From positions 22,228 to 86,227 of the forward strand of contig CAZQQZ010000001.1 in assembly GCA_964595755.1 (NCBI GenBank): a stretch of 64,000 nt of DNA. Direction: 5' to 3'. Below are positions 34,732 through 60,507 of this stretch, piece after piece; position 1 is the stretch's first letter; each line of letters begins with the position of its first letter. Under the pieces are notes generated by a model. It had not been told where the DNA came from. It was given only the letters and a program-made list of their open reading frames with translations, and searched no databases. Source of the DNA: an uncultured Candidatus Saccharibacteria bacterium. Its GTDB lineage: Bacteria > Patescibacteriota > WWE3 > CAZQQZ01. The translations under genes and the position numbers were made by a program.

Positions 34732-34736
34732 TTTAT

Positions 34737-34772
34737 GTACGAAAACATCGACGGTCGTCGATAAAACCGTAC
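34737..34772. repeat. 36-bp nested palindromic element, copy A (GTACG-AAAAC-ATCGAC-GGTC-GTCGAT-AAAAC-CGTAC)
   Basis: Seen directly. The second copy, at 35610-35645, is identical at 34 of 36 positions. Confidence 0.8.
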
Positions 34773-34827
34773 ATCGTTATTTTGGGGAAACAGACACTCT
34801 GGTAACTTCTGGTACTTTAATTAAGAG

Positions 34828-35583
34828 TCAAAGATTTACTTCGATTTTTTTTCGTATTTCGTCGAATATTTTCCTTGCTTCTCTGCCTCCCCAATCAGCA
34901 GGCAAAATTTCGTCAGGAAGATATGGGTCTTCTTTCAGTATTTCTAAATATTGACCAAAAAATGAAGTATTAACTACCGATGAATTCACGTTTATATTCT
35001 TTTTGCAATTTTCTATGAGGAGGGAGTATCTTTCAGAAATCGCAGGAAGATCCCACGCCTTCATAGCTATTTCTTCATTCGAGTAAGATCCGACTTTCTC
35101 CGCTTCAAAAAACAAAACTCCTATTTCGATATTTTCCGTTTTAAACAATTCTTCTATCTCGTCAATAACTGGATGCGGGGATATCCAAACGCTTTCTTGA
35201 AGTAAACCAAACCCAAGTTGGCGAAGATGATTTCTAACACGTTCTCGCGCATTTCTACTTTTTTCTTCTATGTCAAAAATCACAATTCTCCACTTCTTAT
35301 CCCATGGTTTTTTATTAATCTTGTTAATATTTATTGTTCTGTTTAGAGTCTTAAGGCCTAAACTAGTTATTTTATAACGAATCTCTCCCTCTTGAGATAC
35401 TTCTTTTTCTATTTCACCAACAGACACTAACCTTCTTACCGCCTGCTCTACTTTCCGATCCTTCTTACCCATTCTCAGACCAAGAATATCGTGAGATCTT
35501 TTATTGTAAAGACCAGAAACATAACTCCAATAATCAACCGTTTCCGCAAGTTCTATTAGGATTTTATCTTTTGTTCTCATCAC
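34828..35583 (-). CDS. PaaX-family-like transcriptional regulator (winged HTH plus PaaX_C-like domain)
   Basis: The central motif WDKKWRIVIFDIEEKSRNARERVRNHLRQLGFGLLQESVWISP matches the PaaX-family signature (W.G.W.lv.fdiPE..R..R..lr..L...GfG.lq.SVwisP). The N-terminal region is winged-helix-like. Confidence 0.55.
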   Translation of the reverse strand: MMRTKDKILIELAETVDYWSYVSGLYNKRSHDILGLRMGKKDRKVEQAVRRLVSVGEIEKEVSQEGEIRYKITSLGLKTLNRTININKINKKPWDKKWRIVIFDIEEKSRNARERVRNHLRQLGFGLLQESVWISPHPVIDEIEELFKTENIEIGVLFFEAEKVGSYSNEEIAMKAWDLPAISERYSLLIENCKKNINVNSSVVNTSFFGQYLEILKEDPYLPDEILPADWGGREARKIFDEIRKKIEVNL

Positions 35584-35609
35584 TCTATATGTTACTTCAT
35601 TTTATTAGT

Positions 35610-35645
35610 GTACGAAATTATCGACGGTCGTCGATAAAACCGTAC
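35610..35645. repeat. 36-bp nested palindromic element, copy B
   Basis: gtacgaaattatcgacggtcgtcgataaaaccgtac. It lies 27 bp upstream of the PaaX-like start codon and just after the nrdD stop. Confidence 0.8.
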
Positions 35646-35683
35646 ATAATCCTGAGGGAAAATTGCGCCGACCGATATCAACC

Positions 35684-56548: not shown

Positions 56549-56607
56549 TGGGGTGATTCTACCGCAAAATACCCCTTCTCGCTTTTTGTTTTTTCAATTG
56601 TATTATC

Positions 56608-56658: not shown

Positions 56659-56670
56659 TCTTGTGGAATT

Positions 56671-56692
56671 ATTGTGACAATATTGTGACAAT
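56671..56692. repeat. tandem direct repeat ATTGTGACAAT x2
   Basis: Two perfect 11-bp units, preceded by the degenerate ttgtggaatt. A related ATTATTGTGAC occurs at 60326-60337. Confidence 0.6.
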
Positions 56693-56707
56693 AACGATAG
56701 TATGAAA

Positions 56708-56731
56708 GATTACTTATTCGAATAAGTAATC
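56708..56731. repeat. perfect 24-bp palindrome GATTACTTATTCGAATAAGTAATC (left boundary of the RM cassette)
   Basis: Exactly self-complementary; 30 bp downstream of the RM gene stop. The second copy, at 60219-60242, has one mismatch. Confidence 0.85.
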
Positions 56732-56760
56732 TCGAAAAAGACCCACCCAATTAAATGTTG

Positions 56761-59700
56761 TTATTTTGATAATTGCTCATAAAATTTATTTTTCAGGCAT
56801 TGGGAATTAACGAATTTGGCATCCGAAACTTTGTCTTTAGGAATGTCAATGTTGAAGTAAAGACAAAAGACGAGGTTGTCTATAAAACCTTTAATCCCCT
56901 TTTGCTTATCAAAATCAATGATCGGCAATGATTTTAAATCTTCCAGTAGTATTTGCTTTCTTTCAAAATCTAATTTTTGGTCACCGTAATTCCCGTCAAT
57001 TATCTTTTTGATCAGATCAAGATTATCCTTAATTTGTAGCTTTATCTCTTTGTCATCTTTTATTAAAACCAAACAGCCATCTTTTGTTATAACGTTGTCA
57101 AACTTCTGAACCAACACGTTTGAAAAATCAACAAAATCTGAAAGAGTTAACTCCTCTAAACCGAGTAATTGGCTAGTCTGTTTAATAATTTCGTTCTTGA
57201 TTAGTTGATTTCTTTCATCAATCTTTGGCACACGAACAAACTCTTTTACAGAAGTGGTTGAAATAAGAAAGTTTTTTTCATTTTCGCTTCTTAGGAGGGA
57301 ATTAAGAATTAGAGTTATGGATGAGGAGTTGAGCAAAGCAAAGAGATATAAAACCTCTTTTTCGTTGTCACTTCCTATTGCACAGATTTGATTTCTCGCC
57401 CAGATAACTGGCTGAGTGGTAAAGAAAAACCTACTAGGATTGGCGTATGACCACATCAGTTTAAATTTACTATCTAGCAGGTTATACCCTTGGTTGGCCT
57501 GCCTCAACTTTATGGTATATGACGAATTACCTAAGCGAATGTTTGGCCAATACCCCTTAGACCCTTTAATTGTCCAGAGTGAACTATTTAATTTGGGGTA
57601 GTAATAAAATTCCTCGTTCGGCTCTTCTTTCAACAGCTTACTTTCATCAATGCTATACCCACTATCAAAAAAGAATTTAGTTTTGAATTGGAATTTAGAA
57701 AATGTATGTTCGTAATAGATTGAAATATCCTCAGTAGTTCTCTTGTACTCGTTATAAAAGTCAAGAAATGCTTTGTTTTGCTTAATAAAGTTCCAATTAG
57801 TCACATTTCGTAAAAACTCAGATTGCAATACCATCTTTTTATTGATTTTTTTATTGGCTGAAATGTTTTCTAGCGCGTGCCCTACCTCATCGTCTGAATT
57901 CGCATAGTTGATTATCTCGACATGGTGAAGTGTAGGTGGTAGTTCTCTCCTTATAGCAAAAATCAGGCTCGAGGTAGCTATTGGCTTATTCTGCCTTAAT
58001 CCTCTACCCACAAACATCTTGCCGCTAAATGTAATTATTTTCTCAATCGTGGTAAATTTAGCTAAATGATAGCGAAGAACGTCTAGATCTCCAGCGGTTA
58101 AAAGTGTTTGCGGAATGATATAGCAAAGTCTACCATTATCTTTAAGAAGGGCAAAACCTAATGCAATGAAAAAAGCATAAAGATTGGGGTTAGGACGATA
58201 CTTTTTAGAATTGTCAGGAACACTATGAAGATTCACACCGTAAATATTATTGAGTTTTATTTTGCCACGCTTCATTAACTCAAAGGTCAAAACACTCTGT
58301 TTTGCGCACTCGTTATATCCCACATAAGGCGGGTTACCTATTACAAAGTCAAAACGCCTTCTTGGGCATTCCTGCTGGTTTTCAAGGCTTTTTTTCATTT
58401 CCTCCAAATCGCTTTCCTCTCTGACGTAACTTTTGTATCCTAAATCTAATTTTTGAGAAAAAAGAGGAATTTGATTGGGGGAACGTGCTTTCTTTTGAAA
58501 TTCAACTGTCTGGTCATTAAAAGTATTGCGTAAAGCAGTGTCCATAAACTCAGAAATACTATCTCTAGTGAGGAAAACCTTAATTTTTTTATCAACGGGG
58601 TTGTTATATTTCTCGTTAATTATTTGAGGTAACATTCTCATTAAGATATTCATTTCGGCTAGGTATAGTGGGAACTCGGCAATGTCCAACCCAAAAATAT
58701 TATCATTGATAATTTTCTCGACCTGTTCAGATTTTTCAAAGGAACTGTTGCCAAATGCTTTAAGAACAGAGTCAACAGCGCTGTAGAGGAAAGTCCCGCT
58801 TCCGCAAGATGGATCAATTAATGAAATGCTATTTTTGTCGTCCTGATATCTTTTTTGAAGAGCCTCCGGGGTAAATCCGACTTGTTGTAGCATAAAGTTA
58901 ACAACTGCCGGATCGGTAAAGTATTGCCCCTTTTTTGTGTCCTCATACAACTCCTTAAGATAGTTTTCGTAAATATAACCAAAAATCTCATTCTGGATGT
59001 TAGCGAAGTTATATTTTTTAATAAAAACGAATATATCAAGCCACGGGGCAACATCGTGAAGTTCGTTCTTGGGTTGCCTGTACAAGGCAAGCAAAATCTG
59101 ATTGATGAAATCCTGCTCCTTCTTGAAAGGTCTATAAATATTTTGAGAGATTTTATTTGAGATACCTTCAATAACACCTAAAATCTTACCGTATTGTTTA
59201 ACTTTGAGGCATTCGTGAATCGCTTTAACAATATCTGCAAATTCCTGAACAAAATTATCAAACCCGTTATCAACCAAAGTTTTATACAAAATGAACTGGA
59301 TAACATAAGCGTAAGTAATCTCGACTGCCTTTTTCTCTCTATCTCTTCTGTCCAATCCCTCAAAATATCCCTCAATCTGAAGCTTGTTTTTAAAACTTCT
59401 TATTAGTTTGGTAATATCGTCAAAAAATATCTGCCTATTTTCTTCAACAGGAAGTCTTTCCTCTTTCAAAAGAGTGAGTTGGCTTTGAGGTTCAAAAAAA
59501 GTTAGGTAATAAAACTCCGGCTTGACGTATTCCTTCCAAAATTCAAGGAAAAGATCGGTTTCATTAAAAATTTGGTCTAAGCTAAACTCACGATAAATGT
59601 TGTTGTTGTAAAAACGCCAAGTATAGCCATCCGTTAAAATCCCGTAATGTTTATCGAAATCTTTTTGGTAAGCGATAAGTTGTTTTATACCCGCTTGAAT

Positions 59701-60024
59701 ATTACCGTAACACTCTGCTTCCAAAGGAATAATAATCTCTGGACTAATATAAACAACAAAATCTGCCTTTCGACCTTCCTTTGCTTTATTTTCGTGAATA
59801 TACTCATTTTTTCTTGATTCCAATTTTCTTGAAAGAGAGCCTTCCCTTAAATCAAAGAGCTCTTCGCTTTCAAAAAAAGCTTTGACGAAACTATGAACAC
59901 CCGAGCCAAGCTCTTGGTTTTTATAATATTCCTTTTCTTTACTCCACTTACCTTTTAACTCTTTGATGCTCATATTCCTGTTTCTTTCTTGAAATTGCCT
60001 TTGCCATCGGATTAAGGTTTCCAA
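56761..60024 (-). CDS. Type IIG/IIL restriction-modification enzyme, MmeI-like fused endonuclease-methyltransferase-TRD
   Basis: 1087 aa. Gamma-class N6-adenine MTase motif I LIDPSCGSGTFL and motif IV FDFVIGNPPYVG, matching MmeI FFDPACGCGNFL and ILGNPPFVG. N-terminal GRKADFVVYISPEIIIPLEAECYG aligns with the MmeI PD-ExK region GFVDLFWPGILLIEMK. Long C-terminal TRD-like region. Confidence 0.7.
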   Translation of the reverse strand: METLIRWQRQFQERNRNMSIKELKGKWSKEKEYYKNQELGSGVHSFVKAFFESEELFDLREGSLSRKLESRKNEYIHENKAKEGRKADFVVYISPEIIIPLEAECYGNIQAGIKQLIAYQKDFDKHYGILTDGYTWRFYNNNIYREFSLDQIFNETDLFLEFWKEYVKPEFYYLTFFEPQSQLTLLKEERLPVEENRQIFFDDITKLIRSFKNKLQIEGYFEGLDRRDREKKAVEITYAYVIQFILYKTLVDNGFDNFVQEFADIVKAIHECLKVKQYGKILGVIEGISNKISQNIYRPFKKEQDFINQILLALYRQPKNELHDVAPWLDIFVFIKKYNFANIQNEIFGYIYENYLKELYEDTKKGQYFTDPAVVNFMLQQVGFTPEALQKRYQDDKNSISLIDPSCGSGTFLYSAVDSVLKAFGNSSFEKSEQVEKIINDNIFGLDIAEFPLYLAEMNILMRMLPQIINEKYNNPVDKKIKVFLTRDSISEFMDTALRNTFNDQTVEFQKKARSPNQIPLFSQKLDLGYKSYVREESDLEEMKKSLENQQECPRRRFDFVIGNPPYVGYNECAKQSVLTFELMKRGKIKLNNIYGVNLHSVPDNSKKYRPNPNLYAFFIALGFALLKDNGRLCYIIPQTLLTAGDLDVLRYHLAKFTTIEKIITFSGKMFVGRGLRQNKPIATSSLIFAIRRELPPTLHHVEIINYANSDDEVGHALENISANKKINKKMVLQSEFLRNVTNWNFIKQNKAFLDFYNEYKRTTEDISIYYEHTFSKFQFKTKFFFDSGYSIDESKLLKEEPNEEFYYYPKLNSSLWTIKGSKGYWPNIRLGNSSYTIKLRQANQGYNLLDSKFKLMWSYANPSRFFFTTQPVIWARNQICAIGSDNEKEVLYLFALLNSSSITLILNSLLRSENEKNFLISTTSVKEFVRVPKIDERNQLIKNEIIKQTSQLLGLEELTLSDFVDFSNVLVQKFDNVITKDGCLVLIKDDKEIKLQIKDNLDLIKKIIDGNYGDQKLDFERKQILLEDLKSLPIIDFDKQKGIKGFIDNLVFCLYFNIDIPKDKVSDAKFVNSQCLKNKFYEQLSK

Positions 60025-60212
60025 TCGCGAACTACAATAATTTTATTTTTGGAATCTATTTTGAGGATTACTTTTTGCCTTTCCTTCCAGCCAAACTGAC
60101 GAATAACTTCAATTGGAATGGTGATTCCGTAGGAAATGTTTCCAATTCTAGTTATTTTTCTGATATTCCTATCTTCCAGTTTTTTGTCAGACATAGCTAA
60201 TTTATACCACAC
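60012..60212 (-). CDS. AbrB/MazE/SpoVT-fold (swapped-hairpin) DNA-binding protein; candidate controller of the RM gene
   Basis: IRKITRIGNISYGITIPIEVIRQFGWKERQKVILKIDSKNKIIVVRD matches the looped-hinge helix pattern v.k.G.itIP.eiR..lg...gd.v.i. Its 3-prime end overlaps the RM start codon by 13 nt. The start may instead be the ATG at 60194. Confidence 0.5.
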   Translation of the reverse strand: MWYKLAMSDKKLEDRNIRKITRIGNISYGITIPIEVIRQFGWKERQKVILKIDSKNKIIVVRDWKP

Positions 60213-60218
60213 TTTAAA

Positions 60219-60242
60219 GATTACGTATTCGAATAAGTAATC
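60219..60242. promoter_or_regulatory. 24-bp palindrome GATTACGTATTCGAATAAGTAATC immediately upstream of the AbrB-like gene; candidate operator
   Basis: Lies 7-25 bp upstream of the candidate start codons of the AbrB-like gene; one mismatch from the perfect copy at 56708-56731. Confidence 0.5.
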
Positions 60243-60507
60243 CAGAAAAAACGCTTTATCTTAAGAACAATCACTCCCAGTCTAACAAAATATGTAACTT
60301 AGAAGGGGTATTTATTTCGATAATGATTATTGTGACGTCCCGACGGTTGCTTCAATTTCGAAAAAAGTATCAAAATTGACTTTTCGCTGGTGCCCTCCTG
60401 ATTTTTCGGGGCTACTTATCTAGCCTCTCAAACCTACTTAAGCGACTCCAAACAATCATGAAACAGTTTTGGTGTGTTGAAATTTATGATAATTATCGAA
60501 ATATCTG

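Follow-up and report, generated by a model that had tools for sequence, protein, structure and literature searches.

We analyzed a window of 64,000 nucleotides (contig CAZQQZ010000001.1, assembly GCA_964595755.1) from an uncultivated groundwater bacterium of the candidate division WWE3, a member of the Candidate Phyla Radiation (CPR). Within a surface-glycan cluster of this window, two genes on the minus strand were found between two copies of a 24-bp palindrome. The first (60012..60194) encodes a small, putatively DNA-binding protein of the SpoVT/AbrB fold, and the second (56761..59973) a predicted single-chain restriction–modification (R-M) enzyme. A preliminary description of this DNA, made from the sequence alone, had reported glycan-assembly genes on both sides of the pair, and this was confirmed: an FAD oxidoreductase, a GT2 glycosyltransferase and a Wzy_C gene are located on one side, and two S-adenosylmethionine-dependent methyltransferase (SAM-MTase) genes and GT4 glycosyltransferase genes on the other. 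Beyond the distal palindrome, a SAM-MTase gene starts at ATG 56548 on the minus strand.

The small protein (60 aa, MSDKKLEDRNIRKITRIGNISYGITIPIEVIRQFGWKERQKVILKIDSKNKIIVVRDWKP) matched PF04014 (MazE_antitoxin, SpoVT/AbrB domain) with 29 bits against a Pfam cut-off of 24.7. Its AlphaFold2 model (pLDDT 80) has four strands and one helix in the AbrB/MazE layout. According to Foldseek, the best structural matches in the PDB all belong to the SpoVT/AbrB superfamily and include the N-terminal domain of AbrB (1yfb, probability 0.99), MazE (2mrn and 1mvf), SpoVT (2w1t) and Sso7c4; a PDB sequence search gave marginal AbrB matches. The AbrB/MazE similarity suspected earlier for this ORF was thus recovered by both profile and structure searches. 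The SpoVT/AbrB domain occupies residues 12–57, and the protein ends three residues past it, with no C-terminal multimerisation or toxin-binding extension in the alignment or the model. Nearly all of the 44 homologues found are 58–63 aa long, and the IRKI, SY, T-P and W-E-QK positions are invariant across the family alignment. The NCBIfam "doc_partner" model matched weakly (E = 7e-4, 19.9 bits, cut-off 55.9), PADLOC gave zero matches, and no relatives of the protein were found in viral contigs.

The preliminary description assigned the fold correctly but probably not the length of the gene products. Its 66-aa and 1087-aa versions start at upstream GTG and TTG codons, while public gene calls on more than 10 contigs of the same population start at ATG 60194 and ATG 59973, and the N-termini of 20 enzyme homologues align to ATG 59973. 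The small protein therefore most likely has 60 aa and the enzyme 1070 aa. With these starts, the two genes are separated by 38 nt, and the overlap proposed earlier does not exist. The 38-nt spacer holds AGGA, and no terminator-like site was found between the genes in a terminator scan, which would be in line with co-transcription.

The 1070-aa protein has a gamma-class N6-adenine methyltransferase (MTase) domain, preceded by a putative N-terminal PD-(D/E)xK-like domain (D71...E85-x-E87) and a helical linker and followed by a C-terminal region that presumably serves as the target-recognition domain (TRD). The DPSCGSGTFL and NPPY (as GNPPY) motifs reported earlier are present in the translation. 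The best Pfam match was Eco57I (PF07669; 2.6e-21, 76.9 bits, cut-off 25.3), followed by N6_Mtase (PF02384; 1.6e-17, 64.3 bits, cut-off 20.4) and, more weakly, MmeI_Mtase (6.6e-09, 35.7 bits, cut-off 27). No further MmeI-named Pfam domains (N-terminal, helical, TRD) were reported at E ≤ 0.1. In PADLOC, the Type I MTase and Type IIG REase-MTase models matched, while the NCBIfam matches to PglX-like methylases were partial and far under their cut-offs. A PDB sequence search found relatives in the methylase domain alone.

The N-terminal domain gave two Pfam matches at residues 55–123, both below the cut-off: HSDR_N_2 (18.4 bits, cut-off 25) and Tox-REase-9 (17.6 bits, cut-off 27.3). In the alignment of the 20 homologues, D71, P83, E85 and E87 are invariant, and residue 88, which is C here, is K, S, V or R in the others. 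The AlphaFold2 model of residues 1–300 was confident for about 1–150 alone (pLDDT ~75–90), where it shows an alpha/beta core. Its best Foldseek matches in the PDB were chains of DrdV, which belongs to the MmeI family as a Type IIL enzyme (E = 0.02–0.05), nuclease-only chains included (TM 0.53–0.57), and then a Cas4 and an HsdR fragment. A nuclease domain is therefore probable according to the model, and the "MmeI-like" nuclease of the preliminary description gains moderate support from the sub-cut-off profiles and the DrdV-like fold, but Eco57I outranks MmeI_Mtase.

Based on the above results, we conclude that the large protein, previously described as a fused R-M enzyme, is a putative single-chain Type IIG/IIL-like restriction–methylase of the Eco57I/MmeI kind. 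Like Eco57I, MmeI and DrdV, it would combine a nuclease, a linker, a gamma N6-adenine methylase and a C-terminal region in one chain of about 1000–1100 aa, with Eco57I and MmeI_Mtase above their cut-offs and DrdV nearest to the N-terminal model. It differs from them in the D-X13-E-x-E motif, in place of the canonical D...E-x-K, and in the sub-cut-off nuclease matches. It also differs from the MmeI family proper (Type IIL), whose specific domains extend along the whole chain. Type IIG enzymes of this kind are ordinary, and homologues with 44–81% identity occur in many CPR phyla, Planctomycetota, Bacteroidota and others, a wide spread which indicates horizontal transfer. In addition, 3 of the 59 enzyme-homologue loci with enough upstream sequence carry a different small DNA-binding protein in the position of the AbrB-fold gene, namely an HTH_17 gene (excisionase/MerR-like, 58–71 aa) located 3–26 nt upstream of the enzyme gene (L021 4242-4457, L022 2944-3129 and L040 5820-5996).

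The 24-bp palindrome was found at the previously reported positions. The upstream copy (O1, GATTACGTATTCGAATAAGTAATC, 60219..60242) has one mismatch relative to the perfect distal copy (O2, 56708..56731). A search of the whole window that tolerated up to three mismatches gave no third copy (0 copies expected by chance). Both are part of a 35-nt direct repeat (56705-56739 and 60216-60250, 91% identical) with the consensus AAAGATTAC(T/G)TATTCGAATAAGTAATC(TC/CA)GAAAAA.

O1 spans about −48 to −25 relative to the ATG, which is also the probable transcription start of the small gene. Between them, an extended −10 element (TGGTATAAA, 60201..60209, minus strand) was read from the sequence 6 nt before the ATG, without a Shine–Dalgarno sequence. 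It is kept as TG(G/A/C)TATA(A/T)A(T), 6 nt and ATG in the related loci L096, L084 and L097. A sigma-70 scan passed over this element because a −35 match is missing. In four WWE3-clade loci, the palindrome ends 23–24 nt before the ATG and is followed by the conserved TGNTATAAAT and 6 nt; the stretch between palindrome and ATG reads (T/C)TTAAA(G/A)TGTG-N-TATA(A/T)AT, then the 6 nt. The palindrome thus lies across the −35 region and the spacer of a promoter of the extended −10 type, in which there is no space for a leader or a Shine–Dalgarno sequence. We predict a leaderless-type promoter serving the small gene and the genes downstream of it. A promoter-like stretch, TTTTGCGGTA(G/A)AAT, is also conserved before the flanking SAM-MTase gene (window 56549-56575, L084 9478-9499), where it ends 7 nt before the ATG in both genomes, again without a Shine–Dalgarno sequence. 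Leaderless-type starts may be common in this WWE3 organism.

A palindrome accompanies the small gene throughout its family. One was found directly upstream of the gene in all 11 distinct homologue loci; the exact frame ATTAC-N12-GTAAT lies at most 55 nt upstream in 7 of them, and another three show the frame with a single mismatch. The exact frame is absent from 761,900 bp of control DNA (the enzyme-homologue loci) and occurs twice in the window. Furthermore, the inner 12 bases vary by protein subgroup (TTATTCGAATAA, GTATTATAATAC, GTAATATATTAC and AGCAT(A/T)(A/T)ATGCT), which fits an operator role because these bases track the protein. Given the frame beside the small gene in 10 of 11 loci and in none of the controls, the palindrome is very probably the autoregulatory operator of the small protein, a role that the preliminary description had considered probable from the window.

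The variable part of the locus is seen when the window is set beside a related WWE3 contig, L084, whose flanking genes are about 76% identical in DNA. In L084, a regulator with 88% amino-acid identity occupies the same site, between the FAD-oxidoreductase/GT2 side and the SAM-MTase side, and both palindromes are present in the same arrangement, the upstream one with three mismatches and the distal one perfect. By blastn, the glycan flanks (window 64000-60441 and 56569-54189; L084 1526-5086 and 9478-11826) align at ~76% identity, the operator with the regulator gene (window 60250-60018, L084 5963-6195) at 81%, and an island of 40 bp that surrounds the distal palindrome (window 56744-56705, L084 9391-9430) at 90%. 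Between the last two, no homology was detected: the minus-strand segment 56745..60017 of the window, hereafter the cargo, is replaced by 3.2 kb in L084 (6196-9390). None was detected either in the spacer past the distal palindrome (window 56704-56570, L084 9431-9477). The GC fraction of the cargo segment is ~0.31–0.38 versus ~0.36–0.45 in the flanks.

The cargo of L084 comprises two methylase genes, N6_N4 and Dam-like D12, with a 288-aa ORF between them and a 58-aa ORF after the second. The 288-aa ORF fell into no known family and might be an endonuclease. Since L084 keeps the regulator and both palindromes with an unrelated cargo, the exchangeable unit is the R-M cargo alone; the regulator gene and the two palindromes form a conserved frame, and the R-M genes behind the regulator were exchanged. 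The earlier view of a discrete defence island dropped into a polysaccharide locus is consequently right for the R-M genes, which are foreign and exchangeable, but not for the regulator and palindromes, which are not the mobile part; nor is the two-gene unit the cassette, its variable part being limited to 56745-60017. No version of the glycan locus without the cassette was found. All 10 contexts of a 100%-identical flanking SAM-MTase carry it, and homologues of this SAM-MTase at E ≤ 1e-40 number only five; L084 represents a substitution and not an empty site.

Next to the regulator side of the frame, outside the cassette, a 77-nt remnant of a GT2 3′ end (60255..60331, minus strand) is 76.6% identical to L084 5793-5869. 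Its counterpart is an extra GT2 gene, intact in L084 (5016-5888), so a glycosyltransferase gene was lost beside the regulator in the lineage of the window.

Related regulators also precede other defence genes elsewhere. In L096 (85% identical), the palindrome and regulator are followed by an N6_N4 methylase gene on the opposite strand and a TdeIII-type endonuclease gene, and in L097 (75%) by a gene for a DUF3800 protein matching PADLOC DUF3800_VII. In L098 (73%), the regulator precedes a 129-aa ORF. Thus, R-M or defence-candidate cargo was found in four of the five close contexts (73–100% identical regulators, the window and L084 included). The surroundings are non-glycan in L096 (an NYN-domain gene) and L097 (a radical-SAM gene), and tblastx found no similarity between the flanks of L096, L097 or L098 and the window; the same regulator with its promoter and operator therefore occurs in different genomic surroundings.

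Taking these results together, we consider it reasonably probable, on the evidence of comparative sequence analysis, that the small protein is an autoregulator heading exchangeable defence cargo, that is, a functional analogue of the C proteins of R-M systems built on another fold. The 60-aa protein would act as a minimal dimeric SpoVT/AbrB-fold transcription factor that binds the 24-bp palindrome (ATTAC-N12-GTAAT). Binding at −48 to −25 of its own leaderless-type promoter would repress the regulator gene and the co-transcribed cargo. The promoter, operator and regulator would then constitute a "head" fixed in the surface-glycan locus, behind which the defence genes can be exchanged: here the Eco57I/MmeI-like Type IIG enzyme, in the sister genome a methylase–ORF–methylase set. 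Such a regulator may keep the potentially self-toxic enzyme at a low and buffered level, while allowing a burst of expression in a naive cell.

The distal perfect palindrome may be a second binding site and would mark the far edge of the exchangeable segment. O2 lies 29 nt past the stop codon of the enzyme gene and inside the direct repeat, with a T-run before it on the coding strand. When four upstream and two downstream palindrome copies were aligned, the distal copies (window and L084) had in common with the upstream ones the T-run, the palindrome and TTT only. O2 precedes the SAM-MTase ATG by 160 nt in the window, and in L084 the corresponding interval measures 72 nt, so O2 is not positioned relative to the SAM-MTase promoter. 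Most likely, it would serve either as a roadblock or insulator towards the glycan operon or as a distal homology arm for cargo replacement. According to a review (PMC12707154), C proteins autoregulate through operators located at the promoters of their genes, and one of them, C.Kpn2I, serves as a roadblock to elongation; given this precedent, a roadblock role for the distal site is possible.

Several observations weigh against this interpretation. The sample of regulators is small, with five close and six distant contexts, four of the former with R-M or defence genes. The distant homologues (54–67%) adjoin genes for PF1765-like, YHYH, Wzy_C and RecG proteins, a trio of 156, 156 and 516 aa, and Adk (in a SecY-Adk region), and no convincing PADLOC assignment was obtained for these six contexts; the family is therefore one of general small regulators and is not R-M-specific. 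By tblastn, the regulator was found within 6 kb of none of 73 enzyme-homologue loci (44–73% identical enzymes), so that the idea of a regulator conserved alongside this enzyme family was rejected. That the protein would repress and not activate is deduced from the operator position only, and a fused R-M enzyme has a less obvious need of temporal control in the manner of C proteins. Finally, the identical 24-mer turned up in a metagenome scan at four further, non-homologous places in contigs of the same or related genomes, without a regulator nearby.

These solo palindromes (8037-8060 in L088, representing L088/89/92; 1531-1554 in L090; 6359-6382 in L091, representing L091/95; 3856-3879 in L093) are intergenic, and their neighbours include a RusA-like gene and smpB/tmRNA. 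Two of the contigs are as near to the window in tetranucleotide signature (r = 0.95 and 0.93) as the sister genome is, compared with at most 0.875 for 60-odd controls, and they are probably from the same or closely related genomes. Three explanations are conceivable for the solo palindromes, namely relics, additional operators and landing sites. A conserved CACCCGTCGGGTG hairpin and a GCTTAG..ACGGTCTAAAGA stretch were noticed 40–60 nt from each of them; no such hairpin was found anywhere in the window. In Rfam scans, which covered the window and the solo-palindrome loci, tRNAs and a tmRNA were the only matches.

L098 has a more complex organization. At 881-1084, a perfect palindrome precedes a ~50-bp tandem duplication (two copies) and a promoter, behind which the regulator ORF is truncated to 23 codons (MSDKKQEDRNDRKITRI...stop). 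Next come a Fib_succ_major gene and an intact regulator paralogue (2222-2404), whose own operator, TTTACGTAATGTATTACGTAAA, is a different one. The heads thus seem to be arranged in tandem, and the truncated and intact regulators together suggest that heads decay and recur.

In the main rival explanation, which is compatible with an autoregulator heading defence cargo, the small protein would regulate the glycan locus in which it resides. In that case, R-M genes would have been inserted into its operon, the distal palindrome would be the original operator of the SAM-MTase/GT4 genes, and control of restriction would be incidental. The persistence of the regulator and both palindromes at the same glycan site of two WWE3 genomes despite the change of cargo is in accordance with this, as are the perfect palindrome upstream of the SAM-MTase operon in both, the Wzy_C gene that follows a 67%-identical homologue and the many non-defence contexts in the family. 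However, the distal palindrome stands at a variable distance from the SAM-MTase ATG and well upstream of the conserved TTTTGCGGTA(G/A)AAT promoter. Moreover, in L096 and L097 the regulator precedes defence genes although the surroundings are non-glycan, and by tblastx their flanks show no similarity to the window. We consider this explanation rather unlikely.

It is also conceivable, but in our opinion improbable, that the palindromes are mainly recombination or landing sites and that their operator role is secondary. A circular or linear unit of palindrome, regulator and cargo would integrate at an existing solo palindrome through recombination, either site-specific or based on short homology, and leave direct repeats, loosely like integron cassettes, pdif modules or the R-M "insertion with long target duplication". 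The 35-nt direct repeat does flank the unit, the homology with L084 restarts exactly at the T-run and palindrome, four solo palindromes exist on contigs of which two resemble the window in tetranucleotide signature, and L098 resembles a tandem array of palindrome, truncated regulator, gene and second paralogue. Repeat-flanked R-M genes and allelic R-M substitution are likewise documented (PMC2853133). On the other hand, a recombinase gene adjoins the unit in none of the loci examined, homology on the upstream side breaks off where the regulator gene ends and not at the palindrome, and the whole family has a palindrome upstream of the gene, with inner bases that change from one protein subgroup to another, as expected for an operator. 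An empty site was seen in none of the 10 contexts, and viral contigs gave no matches. The gene lists around the locus contain no recombinase, with no integrase search of the whole window made. The site is also multi-copy, unlike what would be expected of a dif/Xer site, and with no recombinase adjoining it an integron attC site seems unlikely as well. As both the palindrome and the regulator were unmatched in viral contigs, a viral origin of the cassette was rejected. A bolder combination of the two roles, in which the head is an integrase-less, integron-like platform of CPR/WWE3 bacteria for expressing and receiving interchangeable defence genes, the palindrome serving both as operator and as the recombination site for swapping cargo or integrating new heads and the solo palindromes as empty landing pads, seems to us no less improbable.

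The preliminary description had also raised the possibility of a toxin–antitoxin-like addiction module. Here, the small protein would be a MazE-type antitoxin that neutralises the enzyme, or a lost toxin, by contact. The Pfam family bears the name MazE_antitoxin, the sub-cut-off "doc_partner" match points in this direction, and antitoxins too autoregulate via palindromes. Nevertheless, the domain fills residues 12–57 of 60 and leaves no toxin-binding tail, no toxin family (MazF, Doc, PIN etc.) adjoins any of the 11 regulator homologues, PADLOC gave nothing, and the downstream partners are structurally unrelated to each other, which makes the antitoxin explanation very improbable. That the palindromes are mere RNA hairpins (weak terminators) or REP-like repeats, near the small gene by coincidence, is hardly credible: each copy has a T-run before it and TTT after it, perfect copies fold (z = −3.2 for O2 of the window, and −2.5), and dispersed copies in other contigs are often near the CACCCGTCGGGTG hairpin, but the terminator scan did not call the palindromes, the upstream copy of the window does not differ from shuffled sequence (z = −0.12), mismatches in upstream copies are non-compensatory, and ATTAC-N12-GTAAT is tied to the small gene at promoter-proximal positions across distant lineages.

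The proposed autoregulatory head has several features in common with the control regions of C-protein-dependent R-M systems (C.PvuII, C.AhdI, C.Esp1396I and C.Kpn2I). A small DNA-binding gene lies upstream of the restriction gene and is co-directed with it; a palindromic operator is located at its own promoter, with autogenous control, predicted in our case; and R-M systems of different kinds have regulators related to one another. The promoter predicted here is of the leaderless type, and several C genes are likewise leaderless. The known dedicated transcriptional controllers of R-M systems, the C proteins, are helix-turn-helix (HTH) proteins. The differences are also evident. C proteins have an Xre-type fold and bind DNA through HTH motifs (PMC12707154), whereas the small protein has a SpoVT/AbrB swapped-hairpin barrel. 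In place of a pair of C-boxes, there is one 24-bp palindrome, with a second copy at the 3′ end of the cargo. Furthermore, a fused single-chain enzyme follows the regulator here, and distant members of its family are unlinked to R-M genes.

With the N-terminal domains of AbrB, Abh and SpoVT and with the MazE antitoxins (PF04014), the small protein shares the Pfam family and the predicted fold. AbrB and MazE are dimeric DNA binders, typically repressing, to which the small protein may be likened. It differs from them by the lack of the AbrB C-terminal multimerisation domain, of the MazE toxin-binding tail and of a toxin partner. AbrB sites are loosely defined, unlike the long palindrome proposed as the target here. 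A parallel in organization is provided by the WYL-domain regulators BrxR/CapW, where one regulator family heads unrelated defence systems and is autoregulated via an inverted repeat. The small protein, however, has an unrelated fold, is far smaller, lacks a ligand-sensing domain and was seen here in CPR metagenomes only.

The exchange of cargo has its own precedents. Allelic substitution of R-M genes, repeat-flanked R-M units and R-M genes in glycan or other loci have been documented (PMC2853133). As in the cases of Furuta, Abe and Kobayashi (2010), differing R-M types occupy one site between conserved flanks, and direct repeats of more than 30 bp flank the unit. In contrast to them, one flank here is a conserved regulator gene, and the repeat is a probable operator, not a duplicated anonymous target. 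An AbrB-fold regulator in the position of a C protein, or one common to several R-M or defence cargos, was not found in an incomplete literature search that included the 2025 review PMC12707154.

If the proposed role of the small protein is correct, the control logic known from C proteins, which combines a small autoregulator, a leaderless promoter with a palindrome and a toxic nuclease downstream, would have arisen on more than one occasion. CPR genomes seldom contain CRISPR, and the annotation of their defence systems is poor. A gene for a 60-aa AbrB protein preceded by ATTAC-N12-GTAAT would then be a marker for defence cargo in such genomes, and the ORFs behind such heads, for example the 288-aa ORF of L084 and the 129-aa ORF of L098, would be candidate defence genes. 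The locus is, moreover, a clean natural example of R-M cargo replaced between fixed boundaries inside a surface-glycan cluster.

Some further features of the locus should be mentioned. At least 10 independently assembled contigs from a 99.5–100% identical population (L003, L005-L007, L009, L010, L094, L107, L109 and L112) end inside the Type IIG gene at differing positions between 56902 and 59566, which may point to differences between strains in the cargo or to coverage problems there.

The preliminary description had also placed ATTGTGACAAT-type motifs at both boundaries of the cassette. Two tandem copies do exist at 56671-56692, but at 60326-60336 the 11-mer ATTATTGTGAC alone recurs, and the motif was rejected as a cassette boundary. 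The tandem copies belong to a set of direct repeats with an 11-bp period, TTGTCAC-AATA-TTGTCAC-AATA-(ATTCCAC) (56669..56692, minus strand), 120–145 nt upstream of the SAM-MTase ATG. They are located outside the cassette, are missing from the matching spacer of L084, and presumably resemble a Pho-box or OmpR-type response-regulator site.

A second regulator gene of the window has a similar layout. A PaaX-like gene (PaaX_M 3e-26; 34828-35583, minus strand) has a 38-bp palindrome, TGTACG..ATCGACGGTCGTCGAT..CGTACA, on either side (34736-34773 and 35609-35646), so that, as in the AbrB unit, a regulator is located between two copies of a palindrome. The TGTACG palindrome was also found in L084 (5897-5938), 33 nt upstream of the AbrB operator, and in L091 (6421-6460), 39 nt from the solo GATTAC palindrome; the two types of site therefore co-occur.

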